Below, piece by piece: positions 6,275-52,631 of a DNA stretch of 64,000 bases. Origin of the DNA: Escherichia coli (GTDB lineage: Bacteria; Pseudomonadota; Gammaproteobacteria; Enterobacterales; Enterobacteriaceae). Made by a program: the position numbers and the translations under genes. The notes under the pieces were generated by a model. That model saw only the letters and a program-made list of their open reading frames with translations. It was not told the DNA's origin and ran no database searches. The first letter of the stretch is position 1. Every line of letters begins with the position of its first letter. The stretch is from assembly GCF_050920415.1 (NCBI RefSeq), contig NZ_CP169309.1. One strand, given 5' to 3'.

Positions 6275-6607
6275 ATGTACGAAGCTCTTTTAGTAGTTTT
6301 CCTTATTGTGGCAATTGGCCTTGTTGGTCTGATCATGCTGCAGCAAGGTAAAGGCGCTGATATGGGAGCCTCCTTCGGAGCAGGCGCTTCCGCTACGCTG
6401 TTTGGTTCAAGTGGTTCTGGTAACTTCATGACCCGCATGACGGCGCTGCTGGCAACGTTATTCTTCATCATCAGTCTGGTGCTGGGTAACATCAATAGCA
6501 ACAAAACCAATAAAGGTAGTGAATGGGAAAACCTGAGTGCGCCGGCCAAAACCGAACAAACTCAGCCAGCTGCTCCGGCTAAGCCGACCAGCGATATCCC
6601 GAACTAA
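6275..6607 (+). CDS. secG: preprotein translocase subunit SecG
   Basis: 110 aa from MYEALLVVFLIVAIGLVGLIMLQQGKGADMGASFG. Confidence 0.95.
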   Translation: MYEALLVVFLIVAIGLVGLIMLQQGKGADMGASFGAGASATLFGSSGSGNFMTRMTALLATLFFIISLVLGNINSNKTNKGSEWENLSAPAKTEQTQPAAPAKPTSDIPN

Positions 6608-14891: not shown

Positions 14892-17564
14892 ATGACAGAT
14901 GTAACGATTAAAACGCTGGCCGCAGAGCGACAGACCTCCGTGGAACGCCTGGTACAGCAATTTGCTGATGCAGGTATCCGGAAGTCTGCTGACGACTCTG
15001 TGTCCGCACAAGAGAAACAGACTTTAATTGACCACCTGAATCAGAAAAATTCAGGCCCGGACAAATTAACGCTGCAACGTAAAACCCGCAGCACCCTTAA
15101 CATTCCTGGTACCGGTGGAAAAAGCAAATCGGTACAAATCGAAGTCCGCAAGAAACGCACCTTTGTGAAACGCGATCCGCAAGAGGCTGAACGCCTTGCT
15201 GCGGAAGAGCAGGCGCAGCGTGAAGCGGAAGAGCAAGCCCGTCGTGAGGCAGAAGAATCGGCCAAACGCGAGGCGCAACAAAAAGCTGAACGTGAGGCCG
15301 CAGAACAAGCTAAGCGTGAAGCCGCTGAACAAGCGAAACGTGAAGCTGCGGAAAAAGACAAAGTGAGCAATCAACAAGACGATATGACTAAAAACGCCCA
15401 GGCTGAAAAAGCCCGCCGTGAGCAGGAAGCTGCAGAGCTCAAGCGTAAAGCTGAAGAAGAAGCGCGTCGTAAACTCGAAGAAGAAGCACGTCGCGTTGCT
15501 GAAGAAGCACGTCGTATGGCGGAAGAAAACAAATGGACTGATAACGCGGAACCGACTGAAGATTCCAGCGATTATCACGTTACTACTTCTCAACATGCTC
15601 GCCAGGCAGAAGACGAAAGCGATCGTGAAGTCGAAGGCGGCCGTGGCCGTGGTCGTAACGCGAAAGCAGCGCGTCCGAAGAAAGGCAACAAACACTCTGA
15701 ATCAAAAGCTGATCGTGAAGAAGCACGCGCAGCAGTACGTGGCGGTAAAGGCGGAAAACGTAAAGGTTCTTCGCTGCAGCAAGGCTTCCAGAAGCCAGCT
15801 CAGGCCGTTAACCGTGACGTTGTGATTGGCGAAACCATCACCGTTGGTGAACTGGCGAACAAGATGGCGGTTAAAGGTTCTCAGGTCATCAAAGCGATGA
15901 TGAAACTGGGCGCAATGGCAACCATCAACCAGGTTATCGATCAGGAAACCGCACAGCTGGTTGCTGAAGAGATGGGCCACAAGGTTATCCTGCGTCGTGA
16001 AAACGAGCTGGAAGAAGCGGTAATGAGCGACCGTGACACAGGTGCTGCGGCTGAACCGCGCGCGCCGGTTGTGACCATCATGGGTCACGTTGACCACGGT
16101 AAAACCTCTTTGCTGGACTACATTCGTTCAACGAAAGTGGCCTCTGGCGAAGCGGGCGGCATTACCCAGCACATTGGTGCATACCACGTTGAAACTGAAA
16201 ACGGCATGATCACCTTCCTGGACACCCCGGGGCACGCCGCGTTTACTTCAATGCGTGCACGTGGTGCGCAGGCAACGGACATCGTAGTCCTGGTTGTTGC
16301 TGCCGACGACGGCGTAATGCCGCAGACCATCGAAGCAATTCAGCACGCGAAAGCGGCAGGCGTGCCGGTTGTGGTTGCAGTGAACAAGATCGACAAACCA
16401 GAAGCCGATCCAGATCGCGTTAAGAACGAACTCTCCCAGTACGGCATCCTGCCGGAAGAGTGGGGCGGTGAAAGCCAGTTCGTACACGTGTCTGCGAAAG
16501 CAGGTACCGGTATCGATGAACTGCTGGACGCTATCCTGTTGCAGGCAGAAGTTCTGGAACTGAAAGCGGTACGTAAAGGTATGGCGAGCGGTGCGGTTAT
16601 CGAATCCTTCCTCGATAAAGGTCGTGGTCCGGTTGCTACCGTTCTGGTACGTGAAGGTACTCTGCACAAGGGCGACATCGTTCTGTGTGGTTTCGAATAC
16701 GGTCGTGTTCGCGCAATGCGTAACGAAATGGGTCAGGAAGTGCTGGAAGCAGGTCCGTCCATTCCAGTTGAAATCCTTGGCTTGTCCGGTGTTCCGGCAG
16801 CGGGTGACGAAGTTACCGTAGTGCGTGACGAGAAGAAAGCACGTGAAGTTGCACTGTATCGTCAGGGCAAATTCCGTGAAGTTAAACTGGCACGTCAGCA
16901 GAAATCGAAACTCGAGAACATGTTCGCTAACATGACCGAAGGCGAAGTTCACGAAGTGAACATCGTTCTGAAGGCAGACGTTCAGGGTTCCGTGGAAGCG
17001 ATCTCCGACTCCTTGCTGAAACTGTCTACTGACGAAGTTAAAGTGAAGATCATCGGTTCTGGCGTAGGTGGTATCACCGAAACCGACGCTACCCTGGCTG
17101 CGGCGTCCAACGCCATCCTGGTTGGTTTCAACGTACGTGCTGATGCCTCTGCACGTAAAGTGATTGAAGCGGAAAGCCTGGATCTGCGTTACTACTCCGT
17201 CATCTATAACCTGATCGACGAAGTGAAAGCGGCGATGAGCGGTATGCTGTCTCCGGAACTGAAACAGCAGATTATCGGTCTGGCGGAAGTTCGTGATGTG
17301 TTCAAATCACCGAAATTTGGTGCCATCGCAGGTTGTATGGTTACTGAAGGTGTGGTTAAACGTCACAATCCGATCCGCGTTCTGCGCGACAACGTGGTTA
17401 TCTACGAAGGCGAGCTGGAGTCCCTGCGCCGCTTCAAAGATGACGTTAACGAAGTCCGTAACGGTATGGAATGTGGTATCGGCGTTAAGAACTACAACGA
17501 CGTCCGCACTGGCGATGTGATCGAAGTATTCGAAATCATCGAGATCCAACGTACCATCGCTTAA
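14892..17564 (+). CDS. infB: translation initiation factor IF-2
   Basis: 890-aa ORF with charged repeat-rich N-terminal region and GTPase domain ([21 protein letters not shown]). Confidence 0.95.
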
Positions 17565-17581
17565 GGTTTTTAGGGTTCTAT

Positions 17582-17650
17582 GCGGGATAAGGCGTTTACG
17601 CCGCATCCGGCATGGATTGCCTGATGCGACGCTGGCGCGTCTTATCAGGC
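17582..17650. repeat. REP (repetitive extragenic palindromic) elements
   Basis: gcgggataaggcgtttacgccgcatccggca and gcctgatgcgacgctggcgcgtcttatcaggc. Confidence 0.8.
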
Positions 17651-17685
17651 TACGTGAACAGCCCTTCTAACTGAAATTAATTTTA

Positions 17686-17712
17686 AAAAGGGGCTAACAG
17701 CCCCTTTTTTGT
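17686..17712 (+). terminator. hairpin-U tract (attenuator/terminator) upstream of rbfA
   Basis: aaaaaggggctaacagccccttttttg. Confidence 0.6.
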
Positions 17713-35202: not shown

Positions 35203-35598
35203 TTATGAGTGGTCATTAAAGGCATCCTTAATCCACTCAACTTCATTCCCGGTGAAGGCTACCACATCGAACCGGCAATCCACAGTATCAAAACTCCCAT
35301 TATGACGCGCGAGCCACAAGCGGGCAGTCTGTAATAATTTGTGTTGTTTGCTGCGGGTCACACTGGCTGCCGCACCACCGTAAAGGGCTGAGCGGCGGTA
35401 ACGCACCTCGACAAAAACGGTGGTCCTGCCTTCACGCATTATCAGATCGATCTCGCCGCCACGCTCGTTCACGTTAGCGGCGACAAACCGCAGTCCTTTG
35501 CTCTCCAGCCAGCGACGCGCTTGTGCCTCCCACGCATCGCCGGTCTGTTTAGTGGTTAACTGGCGGGGACTACCTGACCTTGTTGGTACTGTAGCCAT
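35203..35598 (-). CDS. yraN: UPF0102 family protein YraN
   Basis: 131-aa ORF; 5' end overlaps the 3' end of lpoA. Confidence 0.85.
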
Positions 35599-37592
35599 GA
35601 TAACTTCCTGTTAATTACGCAATCCGGGTTAGCCGTCAGACTTCCGGTATTACCGTTGATTTCGAAACCCTGAACCTGGCGCATCTGTGAGAAATGATTT
35701 GCCAACGACCAGGCATCAACGCCCATCGCATACATGCGAGCCAGCGAATAATCGTTATTCACCGCACTGAGCGCCTGCTGCATTAATGGCAGATTACCGC
35801 CCGCCAGCATCGGGATTTCGCTATATTGCAAACCTTCCATTTCCAGACGGAAATCCGGACCCGCGGTGCCTTGTGCGCTTCGGGAGCTTGCGTACAGCGT
35901 TGCACCGCTCTGGCTACCGTTACGCATGGCGATCATCGGTTTGATAAAAGCGATTTCACCCGGCGTTGCCACAATGTACACCGCATCGACACGACCGCCA
36001 TTATTGGTGAACTGGTCATCGGTTGGCGTGGTTTGCAGCGTTGGATTGTTGGTCGTCATGCCGGAGTCGGTTGTTTCTCTGGGAGTAATCGGGCTACCGG
36101 TTAAAGCGATACCAGAACCACCGTTAACTCCCGCGCGTAATTCGCTGGTGGAACCAAATTTTTGTTGCAGAACGGTGCCGCCGCCCAGCTTCTGCCACTC
36201 TTGCGCAAACGCATTGGCTACGCGATCGCCCAGCGAACTGCGAGGGATCAGCACCAGTGGCGCTTGTTTACCCTGGTCACGAATATGACGCGCTGCATCG
36301 CGCGCTTCGTCTTCCGGTGAAAGCGCGAAGTAACAAATATTGACGCGGTTTTCGATATTTTCTGGCTGGTTCAGTGCCAGCACGTTCAGCGGGGTGTTGC
36401 TTTTCAGTAACTCTTCAACGTTATTTTTCAGCAACGGACCGACCACAATACTCGCGCCATCCTGCTGAACCTGGTTGAGGATCTGGCTAAGCGGTTGTGA
36501 TGAGGTATCATAAATTTTCAGCTCTGCGGATGGATTCGCGGGGGCGCTTACCGCCGCAGTGTTTGCCGCCGGGGCGCTTACAGGCACTGGTTGAGCCGCG
36601 GTTTCTTCGCCTGTCAGATCGCTAACCGAGGCTTGTGCCGGGCTGGCAACGCCGTCAACAGTTTGCTGCTGGGGTTGTTCTGCAACGTCTGCGATTGGTG
36701 CGGCAGTTGCCTGTGCCGCCACTGGCTGAGTGCCGATATTTTTCGCCGCTTCAAAGCCTTGCTGAATAGTGCGGCCAAATACCGCTGCCTGGCCATTCAG
36801 TGGCAACAGCAGGGCTATTTTGTTGGTTGACGCTGGTTTAAATGCTTTTACGTTTACCAACTGCGTAGGCAGCATTTTCGCGCCCGGGTTGTTCGGATAA
36901 CGTTTCTGCCAGTCGGCGATCCCAGCTTTCATCATGTCGGGATCGTTACGGTTATCAAACCAGACGCGCTGCAGATCAAGCCAGCCTTGCAGAATATTTT
37001 CGTCGGCGTTGATCACCAGCGTATTCGCCTGGTCCTGAGTCATGGAGGAGAGTGCCTGCCATGTAGCATCAATATTCTGTTGCTTTTCTTTCGCGCCGAG
37101 CAGGGGTTCCTGAGCAATTAAGGCGCGCAGTAAATCAATGGAAGGACGCCCCTGACTGGCATCGATTTTTGCCTGCCAGTAACGCGCCTGCTGGTTTTGA
37201 TCTAAATCGGCAGGTGTGATTTTCGCCAGCAGGGTTTGTGCGCCAGCAAAATCTTTCTGCGCCAGCTTAATTTCTACTGCCAGAAGAGTTTTCTCGCGAC
37301 GCTGGTAATCGTTCAGTTCCTGCGGCAGCTGGTTAAACAGCTCCACCGCCTGCCCGGTTTTACCTTCTTTCACCAGTGCACGAATGGCGAGTAATTGCCA
37401 GTTGATCCTGGTATCATCAGCGCTTTGCTGCATCTGCTGAAGATAAAAGGCAGAATCAGCCTGCGCCGTGCCCTGCATATAGGCAGTGGACTGATCGGGA
37501 GTATGGGTGCCACAACCGGCGAAAATCAGGGCTGCCAGAACAACAGGCAGACAACGCGCGGCTTTCAAACGAGAAAATGTTGAGGGTACCAT
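35556..37592 (-). CDS. lpoA: penicillin-binding protein 1A activator LpoA
   Basis: 678 aa from [27 protein letters not shown] (lipobox); TPR-like N-terminal domain, Q/P/A-rich linker. Confidence 0.92.
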
Positions 37593-42476: not shown

Positions 42477-43631
42477 TTATGCCTGCCACGGATGAATGAT
42501 TACGCCTTGCACCACGCGGTTAACGGTGCCGCTGGCTGATGGGGTATCCGGCGTATTGCCCATGTGCAGCGATTGCATCAGTGCAAATGTCTGGGCGTAC
42601 ATCAGGAAGCAAAATGCCTGCTCAACGTCGATAAAGTGACGGGACGGCGGCAGGATGATATGTGGACCGGCGGTAATAACGTCGTTGCTTTCCGCGGCGA
42701 TAGCGATTACGCGCATTGCCTGGTTGTCACGGCGGAGTTCTGCCAGCAGATCAAGATCATACTGACGCGTATAGGGGTGGCTGGAGACAAACACCACCAC
42801 CAGCGTTTCGTCATCGACCAGTGATTTAGGCCCATGACGGAATCCGGTCGGGGAATCATAAAAGGCCGCCAGTTTACCCGCCGTTAGTTCAAGCACTTTC
42901 AGCGCCGACTCGCGTGCTGCACCCTGTAATCCACCACTGCCGAGATAAACGATCCGTTTCCACGGTGCGTAACCAAACACACCTTCGCTGAAATCGCCCA
43001 GTGAGGTCAGGATCGCCTGGCAACGATCCGCTACGTCGCGGAAGGTCTGGCTATTGATTGTCTCAGGTGCGAAAACCGCGAGGCAGCTGGCCATCATAGT
43101 GGTAATGCTGCTTGTCATCGCAAAGCCGCGATCGTGCGTTTCTGCGGGCATCAGCAGGGCAAACGCGTTGTCGCTGTTGATCGCGTTTTGGTAAAGAGCG
43201 CCCGCTTCGTTGCAGGTGATCGGCAGGTGATAGCATTCCGGTACAAACTGATTCGCCAGTTCCACGGCGGCGACGCTTTCCGGGCTGTTGCCGGATCGAC
43301 CGAAGGAGATCATCAGCAGCGGATGAGCTGGATTCAGGTAGTCCATCGGATTGGTGACCAGATCGGTGGTTGGTACGGCGCTGAAGTTTTTACCGGTATG
43401 GCTGGCGAGCCACGGCGCGATGATGTCACCGATAAATGCCGAGGTTCCGGCTCCGGTCAGGATGATCCGCAGATTCTCTTTGCGCAGTAACGGTTCAAGG
43501 AAGTTATTGAGCGCGGAACGTAGCGCGTCGATGTTGGTGAGTGAACGGATCCATGCGCGAGGCTGATGGCGGATCTCTTCTTCAGTCCATGTGCCGGTGG
43601 TGGCGGCCGCTGGGGTGTAATTTTCTGGCAT
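42477..43631 (-). CDS. agaS: SIS-domain sugar isomerase/deaminase AgaS
   Basis: 384-aa ORF with tandem SIS domains. Confidence 0.9.
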   Translation of the reverse strand: MPENYTPAAATTGTWTEEEIRHQPRAWIRSLTNIDALRSALNNFLEPLLRKENLRIILTGAGTSAFIGDIIAPWLASHTGKNFSAVPTTDLVTNPMDYLNPAHPLLMISFGRSGNSPESVAAVELANQFVPECYHLPITCNEAGALYQNAINSDNAFALLMPAETHDRGFAMTSSITTMMASCLAVFAPETINSQTFRDVADRCQAILTSLGDFSEGVFGYAPWKRIVYLGSGGLQGAARESALKVLELTAGKLAAFYDSPTGFRHGPKSLVDDETLVVVFVSSHPYTRQYDLDLLAELRRDNQAMRVIAIAAESNDVITAGPHIILPPSRHFIDVEQAFCFLMYAQTFALMQSLHMGNTPDTPSASGTVNRVVQGVIIHPWQA

Positions 43632-43679
43632 AACTCAATCCTTAGTCTGATGAACTTGACTTCCGGCATTGCAGGTTTC

Positions 43680-43800
43680 GCTTGCCTTTCGTTTCATTTC
43701 ACTTGGTGATTCGTTTCGTTGATTAAAATCTATAGAAAAGAAATCGAAAGTTCAATGGAGAAAAAAGAAATAAAACGAAATTTGTGATCGTTGAAAGAAA
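43680..43800 (-). promoter_or_regulatory. agaS promoter region with AgaR (DeoR-family) operator repeats
   Basis: CTTTCGTTTCATTTCACTTGG plus further TTCGTTTCGTT and AAACGAAAT repeats, matching the published AgaR operator pattern TTTCRTTTYRTTTY. Confidence 0.6.
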
Positions 43801-43982
43801 AGACAAGGGAAGATTAAAGGATTGCGTGATGACGTCGCTATGTGTACCGATTGCTGGAAGCGGCGTACCGTTAGAGCGGATAAGACGCGCCAGCGTCGCA
43901 TTCGACACCACTGCACAGATTAAAACGAAAGAAAAAGAAAGGCCTTACGGGGGAAGTGAAGGCCCAATAAAGGAGCAAATCA

Positions 43983-45116
43983 TCAAAACGAAGCTAATTG
44001 ACCCTGAATCCAGATTTGTTGCACATGCAGTCCGCTATCCAGCGCAACGACGCTGGCGCGTTTGCCCGGTTTAAGTGATCCCAAAACACCATCAACACCC
44101 AGCATTCGCGCCGGATGCAGCGACGCCATATGGATGGCTTCCGCTGGCGTTACGCCCGTCAGCTCGACCATATTGCGAACAGCCGCATCAACAGACAGCG
44201 TACTGCCCGCCAGTCCACCGGACGCGGTACGGACAACGCCGTCGTGCATCTGCACCTCTTCACCACATAACGTATAGCGACCATCCGGCATCCCGGCTGC
44301 CTGCATCGCGTCGGTGATGAGCACGATTCTCTCTTTCGCACAGCAACAACACAGCGACATCGCCGCCGGATGTACATGATGACCATCGGCTATCAGTTCC
44401 AGCCAGGCGCGCTTGTCCGTTAATCCTGCGCCAACCATTCCCGGTTCGCGGTGATGTAAACCTGTCATCCCGTTATAGCAATGCACCAGGCCGTCGGCAC
44501 CAGCGTCAAACGCGGCGCGGGTTTGTTGCCAGGTTGCTGCGCTATGTCCCAGCATTACCCGCACGTTCTGCTGTTTAAGATGACGAATGGCTTGTAACGC
44601 GCCCGTTTTTTCCGGTGCCAGCGCCACCACGCGCAAGGTATGCCGTGAAACAGCAATCAATTGATCCAGCTCGGCAATTTCCAGCTCGCGAAACAGCTCC
44701 GGCGGATGTGCGCCTTTATTCTGCGGCGTGAAGTACGGTCCTTCGAGATAACTCCCCAGCACTTGCGCACCAGGTCCACCGCGCTGGCAGCGTAGAGCAA
44801 TACGTTCCAGCGCCGCATGAATGGTATTAAGCGGCGCGGTTACGGTAGTCGGCAACCAACTGCCGACACCTTCCCGTGCCTTGTGCATTGCCAGCTTGTC
44901 GAGCACATCCGGCGCGTCATCCATAACATCAACGCCCGCACCACCGTGTACATGGGTATCGATATAAGCGGGGCAGAGCAGTTCCGCATCGCGTTCAGCC
45001 ACGCCCACTGGAATCGGTTCGATTGCTGCAATTACACCGTCAGCAATATGCAACTGATGATCATCAAGCCAGCCCTCCTCAGTCAGCAGCCTTCTGGCGC
45101 GCAGAACGTGTGTCAT
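43983..45116 (-). CDS. agaA: N-acetylgalactosamine-6-phosphate deacetylase AgaA (full length)
   Basis: 377 aa from MTHVLRARRLL; NagA-like amidohydrolase. Confidence 0.9.
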   Translation of the reverse strand: MTHVLRARRLLTEEGWLDDHQLHIADGVIAAIEPIPVGVAERDAELLCPAYIDTHVHGGAGVDVMDDAPDVLDKLAMHKAREGVGSWLPTTVTAPLNTIHAALERIALRCQRGGPGAQVLGSYLEGPYFTPQNKGAHPPELFRELEIAELDQLIAVSRHTLRVVALAPEKTGALQAIRHLKQQNVRVMLGHSAATWQQTRAAFDAGADGLVHCYNGMTGLHHREPGMVGAGLTDKRAWLELIADGHHVHPAAMSLCCCCAKERIVLITDAMQAAGMPDGRYTLCGEEVQMHDGVVRTASGGLAGSTLSVDAAVRNMVELTGVTPAEAIHMASLHPARMLGVDGVLGSLKPGKRASVVALDSGLHVQQIWIQGQLASF

Positions 45117-45547
45117 ATTCCTTCCTCGACCGGACATTCTTCATGGCAGCGGCCTAACTCGTCCACCAGACTGGTCAGCCCACGGTGTCCACTCTCCAGC
45201 GCCTGTACACGGAATTCTTCACCGCTTAACCCTTCGCGCTCCAGCACCATTTCCAGTAACAGTTGCAAATTGGTGCCGGTGATCACTTCATAGCCCGGTT
45301 TTTGCATCGCCAGCGTTGAAGCCACGCGAAACGGTGTGCCGCCCAGCAAATCTGTCAGAAAAACAATGCCGTCTTCACAATCCAGTTTGGCAATGGCTTC
45401 TTCAAGCTGCGATGTAAGCAGCGCAGTGCTTGAGGTTTCCGGAAAATCAATGGCGATAAACTGCGACTGCTCGCCGAGGATTTGCTTCATTGCTTTTTCC
45501 ATGCCGCTGGCAAATCCGCCATGCCCTGTCAAAATAATACTTAACAT
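45113..45547 (-). CDS. agaF: PTS mannose-family IIA component
   Basis: 144-aa ORF MLSIILTGHGGFASGMEKAMKQILGEQ... Confidence 0.88.
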   Translation of the reverse strand: MLSIILTGHGGFASGMEKAMKQILGEQSQFIAIDFPETSSTALLTSQLEEAIAKLDCEDGIVFLTDLLGGTPFRVASTLAMQKPGYEVITGTNLQLLLEMVLEREGLSGEEFRVQALESGHRGLTSLVDELGRCHEECPVEEGI

Positions 45548-48999: not shown

Positions 49000-49029
49000 T
49001 TTCCTCTCCAGTTCAGATTGCTGCGATAT

Positions 49030-49247
49030 TAATCTTTCGTTTTGTTTCAGTTGATACTGCGTCATGGTGAGATAAAAATAAAACGAAAGATAATAGTTTT
49101 CTGATCTGATTCACAAAAGAAACATAATGAAAGTCACTGAAACGAGAGTAGCTTGCGTCAATGGGCAAGGTGGGCTTGCATTTGCTCAATAGAAAGGCGT
49201 TAATAGACAAAACGAAATGAAACGAAAGTTTTACGAAAGGACTTACT
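49030..49247. promoter_or_regulatory. divergent kbaZ / agaR control region with AgaR operator repeats
   Basis: CTTTCGTTTTGTTTCAG (49034-49050), AAAACGAAAG (49077-49089), AAAACGAAATGAAACGAAAGTTTTACGAAAGG (49208-49240). Confidence 0.65.
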
Positions 49248-50057
49248 ATGAGTAATACCGACGCTTCAGGCGAGAAGCGAGTGACAGGCACCAGCGAGCG
49301 ACGAGAACAAATCATTCAGCGCCTGCGACAGCAAGGGAGTGTGCAGGTTAACGATCTGTCGGCATTGTATGGCGTATCTACTGTGACGATCCGCAACGAT
49401 CTGGCGTTTCTGGAAAAGCAGGGGATCGCTGTGCGGGCCTATGGCGGCGCGTTGATCTGCGATAGCACGACGCCGTCAGTCGAGCCATCAGTGGAAGATA
49501 AAAGCGCGCTGAACACTGCGATGAAACGCAGCGTTGCGAAAGCTGCCGTTGAGTTGATTCAGCCAGGTCATCGGGTGATCCTCGATTCCGGGACCACCAC
49601 TTTTGAGATTGCTCGTCTGATGCGCAAGCACACTGACGTAATTGCGATGACCAATGGTATGAACGTAGCCAATGCACTGCTGGAAGCAGAAGGCGTTGAA
49701 CTTCTTATGACCGGCGGGCATCTGCGGCGTCAGTCGCAATCTTTTTACGGCGATCAGGCTGAACAATCGCTACAAAATTACCACTTTGATATGCTTTTTC
49801 TCGGCGTAGATGCGATCGATCTGGAGCGCGGCGTCAGCACGCATAATGAAGATGAAGCCCGTTTAAACCGTCGGATGTGCGAAGTTGCGGAACGGATCAT
49901 TGTGGTCACCGATTCCAGTAAGTTCAACCGTTCCAGTTTACATAAGATCATTGATACTCAACGTATCGACATGATCATTGTTGATGAAGGCATTCCTGCG
50001 GATAGTCTGGAAGGACTGCGAAAGGCTGGGGTTGAAGTGATTCTGGTCGGGGAGTGA
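49248..50057 (+). CDS. agaR: DeoR-family transcriptional repressor AgaR
   Basis: 269-aa ORF with N-terminal HTH and DeoR C-terminal domain. Confidence 0.92.
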
Positions 50058-51059: not shown

Positions 51060-52631
51060 TCAAGTCACCGGTGCCGGGTTAAACACCGCCAGCTGGTTAT
51101 GCAGTCCCCATTGATCTGAGAAGGTTTTCTTCTTCCCGCTGGCGACGTCGAGAATAAAATGGAACAATTTCCAGCCCACCTCTTCAATAGTTTCTTCGCC
51201 GGTAGCGATGGTGCCCGCATTAATATCCATTAAATCAAACCAGCGGTTCGCCAGCTCGGTGCGGGTCGCCATTTTAATGACGGGTACCGCCATCAGGCCG
51301 TACGGCGTACCACGGCCGGTCGTAAACACTTGCACGGTAATCCCCGAAGCCACCTGTTGCGTGCCACAGACAAAATCGCTGGCTGGCGTCGCAGCGTAAA
51401 TTAATCCGCGTTTAGTCGGGCGTTGACCGGGCGACAGCACTTCAACAATTGCACTTTTACCCGATTTAGCAATGGAGCCGAGCGCTTTCTCCACCACATT
51501 TGCCAGACCGCCTTTCTTGTTGCCCGGCGAAGGGTTGGCGCTGCGGTCGGTTTTTCCCATATTGAGATAGTTATCGTACCACTCCATCTCCTCCAGCAGC
51601 CGTTTGCCGACCTCTTCGTTCACTGCGCGCGGCGTCAGCAGATGGATCGCGTCACGCACTTCTGTGACTTCCGAGAACATCACCGTTGCACCGCAGCGCA
51701 CCAGTAGATCAGATGCATAACCCACGGCTGGATTTGCCGTTACGCCAGAAAACGCATCGCTGCCACCGCACTGCATGCCGACAACCAGTTCTGAAGCCGG
51801 ACAGGTTTCTCGCTGACGTTGATTCAGTTTTTGTAGATGGCGTTCGGCGACCTGCAAAATATCCTCGACCATGGACTGAAAACCGACATGCTTTTCATCC
51901 TGCAAACTGACAATGCTGGCGCTTTCTACTGGAATAGCTTGCACATCATCCGTTCCAGTCAGCAGGCGTTCAGGCTGCAACTTTTCACAACCCAGACCAA
52001 TCACCATTACTTCGCCGCCAAAGTTAGGGTTCAGCGAAATATTGTGAATGGTACGAATAGGCACAACTGCCGCCGGTGCGTTAATCGCCACGCCACAACC
52101 GTACAAATGATTCAGCCCCACCACGCCATCGACGTTCGGGTATTTCGGTAGCAGATCGCGTTCAATGATTTTTACTACATAGTCCACCACGCCTGCCACA
52201 CAGTGGACGCTGGTGGTGATGCCGAGCAGGTTTTTGGTGCCCACGCTGCCATCGGCATTGCGATAGCCCTCAAAGGTGTATCCTTCCAGTGGCGGTAAGG
52301 GGGCCGGGACTTTAGTTGCCAGTGGCAGCGTGTGTAACGGTGGCGCTTCCGGTAGTACAACCATTGATTCGTCGATCCAGCTTCCGCGTGGGATTGCGCG
52401 CACGGCGTAACCAATCACTTCACCATAACGAATAATTTCACCATTAGCCGGAATGTCCAGCAATGCGACTTTATGCCCCTGGGGAATATGTTCAATTAAT
52501 TCCAGCCCATCCGGAAAACGCGTTCCTGCTTTCAGGCCATTATCATTAACAATAATTGCCACATTATCTGTGTCGTGAACTTTTATATAAAACGCAGTTG
52601 GCGTTTCTTGTCTGATTTCGATGTTGGCCAT
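51060..52631 (-). CDS. garD: galactarate dehydratase
   Basis: 523-aa [40 protein letters not shown]... Confidence 0.93.

Follow-up and report, generated by a model that had tools for sequence, protein, structure and literature searches.

What does the 351-bp spacer between agaA and agaS hold, and what controls agaS? The spacer (43632-43982 in the ORF list) lies in 64,000 nucleotides of Escherichia coli DNA, the whole stretch that we analysed and that we refer to as the window. A sequence-only reading had placed the spacer between agaA and agaS and had seen in it AgaR operators with an internal PagaS promoter, a partial REP and a probably spurious open reading frame; all four claims hold, and the reading was silent on the minus-strand direction of the genes and promoter and on a terminator just past agaA. 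In transcription order, the spacer consists of a terminator, a decayed REP and the PagaS control region. It is an ordinary control region that is already known and that matches the published account, and we put at roughly 90% the probability that it forms the boundary of two AgaR-repressed operons, with a terminator, a passenger REP and PagaS bracketed by AgaR operators. Positions, motif strength and conservation were computed here, while AgaR binding and the inducibility of the agaS promoter (Ps) come from the literature.

AgaR is reported to repress two operons, kbaZ-agaVWEFA and agaS-kbaY-agaBCDI (PMC10101011). Ps has been described as a promoter of its own, with AgaR binding stated at the agaS promoter (PMC3668189), and is induced by GalNAc, 20-fold for a Ps-lacZ fusion and ~500-fold by qRT-PCR in O157 (PMC3668189; also PMC4694137). 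For the PagaS region, PMC3668189 and PMC4694137 both cite Ray & Larson 2004 (Mol Microbiol 51:813).

The placement of the spacer between agaA and agaS is agreed by the ORFs, the RefSeq annotation and NCBIfam, and both genes run on the minus strand in the ORF list:

43983-43985, minus strand: agaA stop codon, end of the kbaZ-agaVWEFA operon (ORF 43983-45137; RefSeq)
43629-43631, minus strand: agaS start codon, ATG (ORF 42477-43631; RefSeq annotation)

The upstream gene encodes a nagA-type GalNAc-6-P deacetylase (NCBIfam nagA equivalog, 286 bits) and the downstream gene belongs to the TIGR02815 agaS family (632 bits). The spacer is 100% identical to that of E. coli MFDS1022581, in which RefSeq places a nagA-type agaA and agaS on either side. 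It sits inside a complete 13-gene aga/gam cluster, whose order in the annotated match is agaR / kbaZ-agaVWEFA / agaS-kbaY-agaBCDI, with no gene missing. The repressor gene itself lies at 49248-50057 (NCBIfam AgaR equivalog, 465 bits), and its product is identical to K-12 AgaR at 269/269 residues (100%).

Identity of the spacer to most E. coli is 85-92%, and we considered whether this marks it as exceptional, using the following regions:

35556-37592, 42477-45137 and 51060-52631: regions compared for identity to E. coli genomes

We rejected the idea, as the flanking genes and lpoA, a distant gene, are likewise 90-96% identical: agaS is ~95-96% and agaA ~94% identical to most E. coli genomes, and lpoA is 90-95% identical to 5348/5424 of them. 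Genomes at least 99% identical number 1-3 at agaS, agaA or lpoA, 15 at the spacer and 37 at garD. Since agaS, agaA and lpoA are similarly divergent, the whole strain belongs to a divergent lineage.

The 24-nt AgaR consensus, which Ray and Larson are said to have given in 2004, reads WRMMTTTCRTTTYRTTTYNYTTKK. We also built an independent position weight matrix (PWM); its 19 training sites came from the agaR-kbaZ region and the aga loci of other genera, with the Escherichia agaA-agaS spacer excluded, so AgaR scoring does not depend on that consensus. Allowing up to three mismatches, the consensus matched five times in 64 kb, compared with 0.20 expected, and all five matches fall in two aga control regions: two in the agaA-agaS spacer and three in the agaR-kbaZ spacer. 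Those in the agaA-agaS spacer, together with an adjoining run, are:

43761-43784, minus strand: AgaR operator O-up CAAATTTCGTTTTATTTCTTTTTT, in direct orientation, spanning about -64 to -41 relative to the predicted start
43707-43722, plus strand: extra half-site-like run TTCGTTTCGTT adjoining O-down, in a form specific to the lineage of the window
43683-43706, plus strand: AgaR operator O-down TGCCTTTCGTTTCATTTCACTTGG, the site picked out by the sequence-only reading, inverted relative to agaS and at about +15 to +38 of the predicted start

O-down matches the consensus WRMMTTTCRTTTYRTTTYNYTTKK without mismatch and scores 35.7 bits, the first rank among ~128,000 window positions, so that a matrix scan makes the operator proposed from sequence the best match of the whole window. 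The operator string as originally proposed, CTTTCGTTTCATTTCACTTGG, occurs once, on the plus strand at 43686-43706; it was given a start of 43685, one base off. O-up has one consensus mismatch and ranks fifth with 22.2 bits, and the PWM maximum over 20 shuffles was 14.0 bits. Half-sites of the form TTTCGTTT/AAACGAAA occur nine times in the window, three of them in the spacer (43687-94, 43773-80 and 43923-30) and four in the agaR-kbaZ region.

Both operators are identical in K-12, and across five genera both O-down and the O-up core TCGTTTTATTTC hardly vary. O-up and O-down lie 78 bp apart here and 77-78 bp apart in every genus compared. Searching one genome from each of 100,044 species for the 17-mer operator core CCTTTCGTTTCATTTCA revealed 83 matches, and all 14 in Enterobacterales fall in an aga control region, either ahead of agaS or in the agaR-kbaZ spacer; these genomes belong to Escherichia spp., Klebsiella sp., Cedecea, Buttiauxella and Yersinia. 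The sites combine the motif, a genome that encodes AgaR with agaS downstream, identity to K-12 and cross-genus conservation. Beside O-down, the window reads AACGAAACGAAT whereas other E. coli read AACGAAAGACAT, and the run there is not kept outside Escherichia.

To describe the promoter, we took ten sequences from five genera and aligned the 180 bp that precede agaS in each; conservation was limited to discrete blocks, with the sequence between them varying freely:

43783-43789, minus strand: conserved block GATCAC(R), GATCACA in the window, adjoining O-up
Within 43761-43784, minus strand: O-up alignment block TTTCGTTTTATTTC
43750-43755, minus strand: predicted -35 TTGAAC; TTGAnC is invariant in the ten sequences from five genera
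43735-43750, minus strand: O-mid, a TTTC-repeat block CTTTCGATTTCTTTTC with the pattern CTTTCnnTTTCyTTTC that fills the spacer between -35 and -10
43727-43732, minus strand: predicted -10 TAGATT; in all five genera TAnATT follows the -35 after exactly 17 bp
43683-43706, plus strand: O-down alignment block, inverted, GTGAAATGAAACGAAAG
43639-43643, minus strand: agaS ribosome-binding site AAGGA; CTAAGGA is invariant in five genera, 7 nt before the ATG

The second operator and the -35 and -10 elements, conserved upstream of agaS across five genera, bear out the internal PagaS promoter that had been suggested. The -10 reads TAAATT in Klebsiella sp. The hexamers of the window match the sigma-70 consensus at 8/12 positions only, which explains why a simple promoter scan (at least 9/12 matches needed) called no promoter in the spacer. 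From the position of these elements, agaS transcription would start near 43719-43720; a search of published SMRT-Cappable-seq and Cappable-seq data for this start gave no hits.

The O-mid pattern is kept in 9/10 sequences, with Cedecea carrying CTTACACTTTCCTTTC. By the gapless PWM, O-mid scores low in Escherichia (3-5 bits), and sites that overlap it a few bases downstream, across the -10, reach 13.6-15.2 bits in Klebsiella sp. and Cedecea. O-mid is probably an additional AgaR contact. Next to O-up, all five genera share GATC, and AC(R) after it hardly varies, and the GATCACA block contains TCACA in gene orientation (TGTGA on the plus strand), which is one perfect CRP half. A full CRP site of the form TGTGA-N6-TCACA at this place matches at only 7/10 core positions, a level too common to be distinctive, since ~0.3% of window positions match as well. 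GATCACA is a possible CRP half-site, through which CRP might act at PagaS.

A natural variant that could probe the role of the GATCACA block is found in Escherichia sp. MOD1-EC7003 (locus L077, ~6395-6410), where a 7-nt deletion takes ACAAATT, comprising the end of GATCACA and the 5' edge of O-up, so that O-up drops from 22.2 to 15.1 bits. Downstream of the start, we considered a structured agaS 5' leader and rejected it: shuffled sequences fold as well as the leader does (z = -0.5), and a small window-specific hairpin near 43660-43682 is not conserved. On the minus strand at 43655-43682, the leader carries eight substitutions within ~25 nt relative to all other Escherichia sequences, and these create the small lineage-specific hairpin (GGCA-AGCG-AAACC-UGC-AA-UGCC).

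At the other end of the spacer, directly after agaA, we identified the elements of a terminator:

43940-43965, minus strand: predicted terminator hairpin GGGCCUUCAC-UUCCCCC-GUAAGGCCU, with 9 pairs, one bulge and a 7-nt loop
43922-43939, minus strand: T-rich tail UUCUUUUUCUUUCGUUUU, directly after the hairpin and interrupted by C residues
43921-43944, minus strand: candidate distal AgaR-like site GGCCTTTCTTTTTCTTTCGTTTTA, overlapping the tail and of uncertain status

The hairpin begins 18 nt past the agaA stop and its fold is modest (-10.2 kcal/mol, z = -2.3), and a simple terminator scan did not call it, owing to the bulge. The stretch is invariant in six Escherichia lineages. Klebsiella sp., Cedecea, Buttiauxella and Yersinia have a 9-10-bp hairpin at the equivalent place, built from unrelated stems (z = -3.1 to -8.6), and a tail like CCUUUyyUUUyCUUUC is present in all five genera. 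Structure that is kept while the stem sequence changes is the signature expected of a real intrinsic terminator, and with its hairpin, U-rich tract and conserved structure we predict that this element is the intrinsic terminator that closes the kbaZ-agaVWEFA operon. The simple scan also called two plus-strand 'terminators' (43594-43613 and 43671-43685), which we attribute to chance, as they are antisense to agaS and at least the latter is not conserved.

The tail of the terminator resembles an AgaR site. With 15.9 bits it comes eighth among ~128,000 positions and exceeds the shuffle maximum, and no other T-rich 24-mer of the window that lies outside the aga control regions passes 8 bits. In Buttiauxella and Yersinia the corresponding tail reaches 14.6-18.2 bits, in Klebsiella sp. 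and Cedecea less than 5 bits. That the tail at 43921-43944 doubles as a fourth, distal AgaR operator, acting by a loop to O-up or as a roadblock, seems doubtful. If it did, AgaR bound there could loop to O-up ~160 bp downstream, or its roadblock could reinforce a weak terminator, and termination of the upstream operon would be coupled to repression of the downstream one.

Between the terminator and PagaS lies the REP material:

43870-43906, minus strand: degenerate REP (palindromic unit) GTCGAATGCGACGCTGGCGCGTCTTATCCGCTCTAAC, identified by core match, copy number and orthologous intact units
43850-43866, minus strand: second, inverted REP, right arm only, ACGCCGCTTCCAGCAAT, identified by alignment of spacer alleles

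The string GAGCGGATAAGACGCGCCAGCGTCGCATTC occurs once in the window, at 43874-43903, within the region of about 43860-43910 where a partial REP-like palindrome had been noticed. That description proved apt. The 23-nt core ATGCGACGCTGGCGCGTCTTATC recurs unchanged in a canonical REP of the window (17624-17646), and a 45-nt REP segment occurs at 40 or more places per genome in 5425/5426 E. coli genomes; 'partial' fits a copy that in this strain has lost its outer stem (GTCGAAT / ATCCGCT versus GTCGGAT / ATCCGAC). The copy is extragenic, in the spacer between convergent-free gene ends. Its fold is no more stable than those of shuffled copies (z = +0.14) and is not the canonical hairpin, so that by descent it is a REP, but a degenerate one whose structure is no longer intact. 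The palindrome GTCGGATGCGACGCTAACGCGTCTTATCCGACCTAC is still whole in other E. coli lineages, and the AR0067 copy folds canonically at -19.9 kcal/mol. A permissive Rfam scan of the spacer returned no known RNA family, its weak match to the REP-derived naRNA4 (20.8 bits, E = 0.4) falling below the threshold of 59.5 bits. The canonical REP of the window belongs to a two-unit BIME at 17580-17655 (gcgggataaggcgtttacgccgcatccggca / gcctgatgcgacgctggcgcgtcttatcaggctac), just past the stop of an 890-aa ORF (14892-17564), and a separate hairpin and T-run follow this BIME at ~17690-17710.

Comparison of spacer alleles shows their relationship. In E. coli E69, unit 1 is joined by a linker to an inverted unit 2, beyond which comes another stretch of 29 nt. 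It is these 29 nt after unit 2 that K-12 and O157 have lost, keeping unit 2 complete, while the window, W, AR0067 and E. whittamii have lost a different 29 nt that includes the left half of unit 2, so that the window holds no BIME pairing with a complete inverted second unit. With two independent 29-nt deletions and an IS1397 insertion among E. coli, the REP is the most variable part of the spacer, and it is absent from the agaA-agaS spacer in Klebsiella sp., Cedecea, Buttiauxella and Yersinia. The REP piece is genuine but decaying, and most likely a passenger.

Two E. coli loci deserve separate mention. E69 (a GTDB species representative; locus L036, 3406-3887) has no agaA match upstream of agaS in its 5.9-kb locus, indicating that its aga cluster is rearranged, and its spacer retains a complete BIME and PagaS block. 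REP loops are the specific target of IS1397, and in L1PEag1 (locus L006, 1003-2440) an IS3-like element of the IS1397 family occupies the loop of REP unit 1. It lies between the agaA terminator and PagaS, is flanked by a 4-bp TAAT duplication, and shows that REP-targeted insertion has occurred naturally here.

One mechanical reading frame crosses much of the spacer:

43784-44074, plus strand: 96-aa ORF with a GTG start, from the ORF list; judged not a gene

Four elements are covered in antisense by this frame: the agaA 3' end, the terminator, the REP and O-up. Pfam offers no family for it, and the residues of its N-terminal third are unrelated in the K-12/O157 allele. RefSeq records among the matches listed of 5312 matching genomes carry no annotated feature in the spacer. 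The ORF is spurious, as the sequence-only reading had suspected.

Other explanations of the spacer have to be weighed against these observations. REPs in general can stabilise upstream mRNA, and the unit here lies just downstream of the terminator and keeps its palindrome in other E. coli lineages, so it might work in regulation as a stabiliser of the agaA mRNA 3' end or as a protein-binding spacer. We regard this as highly unlikely given that four other genera manage without a REP here, that no other part of the spacer varies as much, that the unit has lost both its outer stem and any fold beyond that of shuffles in the window, and that most transcripts would exclude a REP placed beyond the terminator. 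Just as unlikely is the idea that agaS has no separate promoter and depends on read-through from PagaZ, the TTTC sites being AgaR roadblocks or chance T-rich sequence. The weak hexamers (8/12), which the scan did not call, and the modest terminator in Escherichia would suit such an arrangement, but TTGAnC-17-TAnATT is kept in five genera while its flanks drift, and the hairpin and T-tract after agaA are likewise kept in all five. E. coli E69, without agaA upstream, still keeps the whole promoter block, and a Ps-lacZ fusion has already been reported for K-12 as active, inducible by GalNAc and dependent on AgaR (PMC3668189).

The chance that the spacer codes for a small protein, either through the plus-strand ORF 43784-44074 or through minus-strand ORFs of 54-62 aa, is close to nil. 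The plus-strand frame is open for 84-92 codons in seven other Escherichia lineages, but this probably reflects a purine-rich strand and is not by itself evidence for a gene. What the frame reads is the terminator, REP and operator in antisense; there is no Pfam family or annotation among the matches listed of the 5312 genomes, no conserved start and no homology in the N-terminal third between spacer alleles. In addition, the region is not conserved outside Escherichia, and 29-nt indels shift the minus-strand ORFs.

We therefore favor the spacer as an operon boundary, which would work as follows. Transcription of kbaZ-agaVWEFA would stop at the intrinsic terminator, 18-62 nt past the agaA stop, and the decaying REP/BIME copy that comes next would most likely be a passenger. 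The final ~160 bp of the spacer make up the PagaS control region already described, with a weak sigma-70 promoter (TTGAAC-17-TAGATT) flanked by O-up, direct and just upstream of the -35, and by O-down, inverted and in the early transcribed region. AgaR, a DeoR/GlpR-family repressor encoded 5.6 kb away in the same cluster, would occlude PagaS from these sites and probably bridges O-up and O-down, possibly by looping. Growth on GalNAc or GalN would lift repression, so that agaS-kbaY-agaBCDI would be transcribed with a leader of ~88 nt.

Identity of the operators and of AgaR to K-12, together with the published work on PagaS, makes the sequence-only reading the established one. The PagaS architecture of K-12 is thus unchanged in a divergent E. 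coli lineage whose aga/gam cluster is complete, and K-12 regulatory data should carry over to this lineage. The five-genus footprint also provides a compact, reusable description of an AgaR-controlled promoter, with base-level coordinates for all elements.

At the same locus in K-12 (MG1655), O-up, O-down, the -35, the spacer length, the -10 and AgaR are all identical to those described here. The differences lie around them: K-12 carries the truncating agaW'/agaA' deletion whereas the cluster of this strain is complete, O-mid differs by single bases (CGATTTC here, CAGTTTC in K-12), and the sequence next to O-down is AACGAAACGAAT here and AACGAAAGACAT in K-12. The 5' leader has ~8 clustered substitutions relative to K-12, and the BIME allele also differs.

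Within the window, the closest relative of PagaS is the PagaZ/PagaR region (~49000-49247), which shares the 24-nt AgaR motif:

49031-54, 49069-92, 49113-36 and 49208-31: four AgaR sites of the PagaZ/PagaR region, located by consensus and PWM

Like PagaS, PagaZ/PagaR has a promoter set between two operators, one direct and one inverted. Unlike PagaS, which has a half-site matching 7/10 core positions, PagaZ has a strong CRP site, TTTTGTGAATCAGATCAGAAAA, that matches at 9/10, and it has neither the REP nor the terminator that are both present in the PagaS spacer. This CRP-like sequence, at 49097-49118 on the minus strand in the agaR-kbaZ region, is one of four such sites in the window and abuts the AgaR site at 49113-49136. 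The AgaR-like site at 49069-49092, with a score of 21.8 bits, makes a sixth.

Compared with the E. coli REP/BIME family, the unit in the window shares the core ATGCGACGCTGGCGCGTCTTATC, its extragenic position and a high repeat number, and the orthologous unit in L1PEag1 has been hit by IS1397; it differs in that its outer stem is broken and its partner unit is reduced to a right arm. Finally, the operators of GlpR, DeoR and SrlR resemble those of AgaR, a member of the same family, in being multiple and in lying around and downstream of the promoter. What would set AgaR apart from other DeoR/GlpR-family repressors is its recognition sequence, which appears from these sites to be an AgaR-specific TTTC repeat phased at 5 nt.
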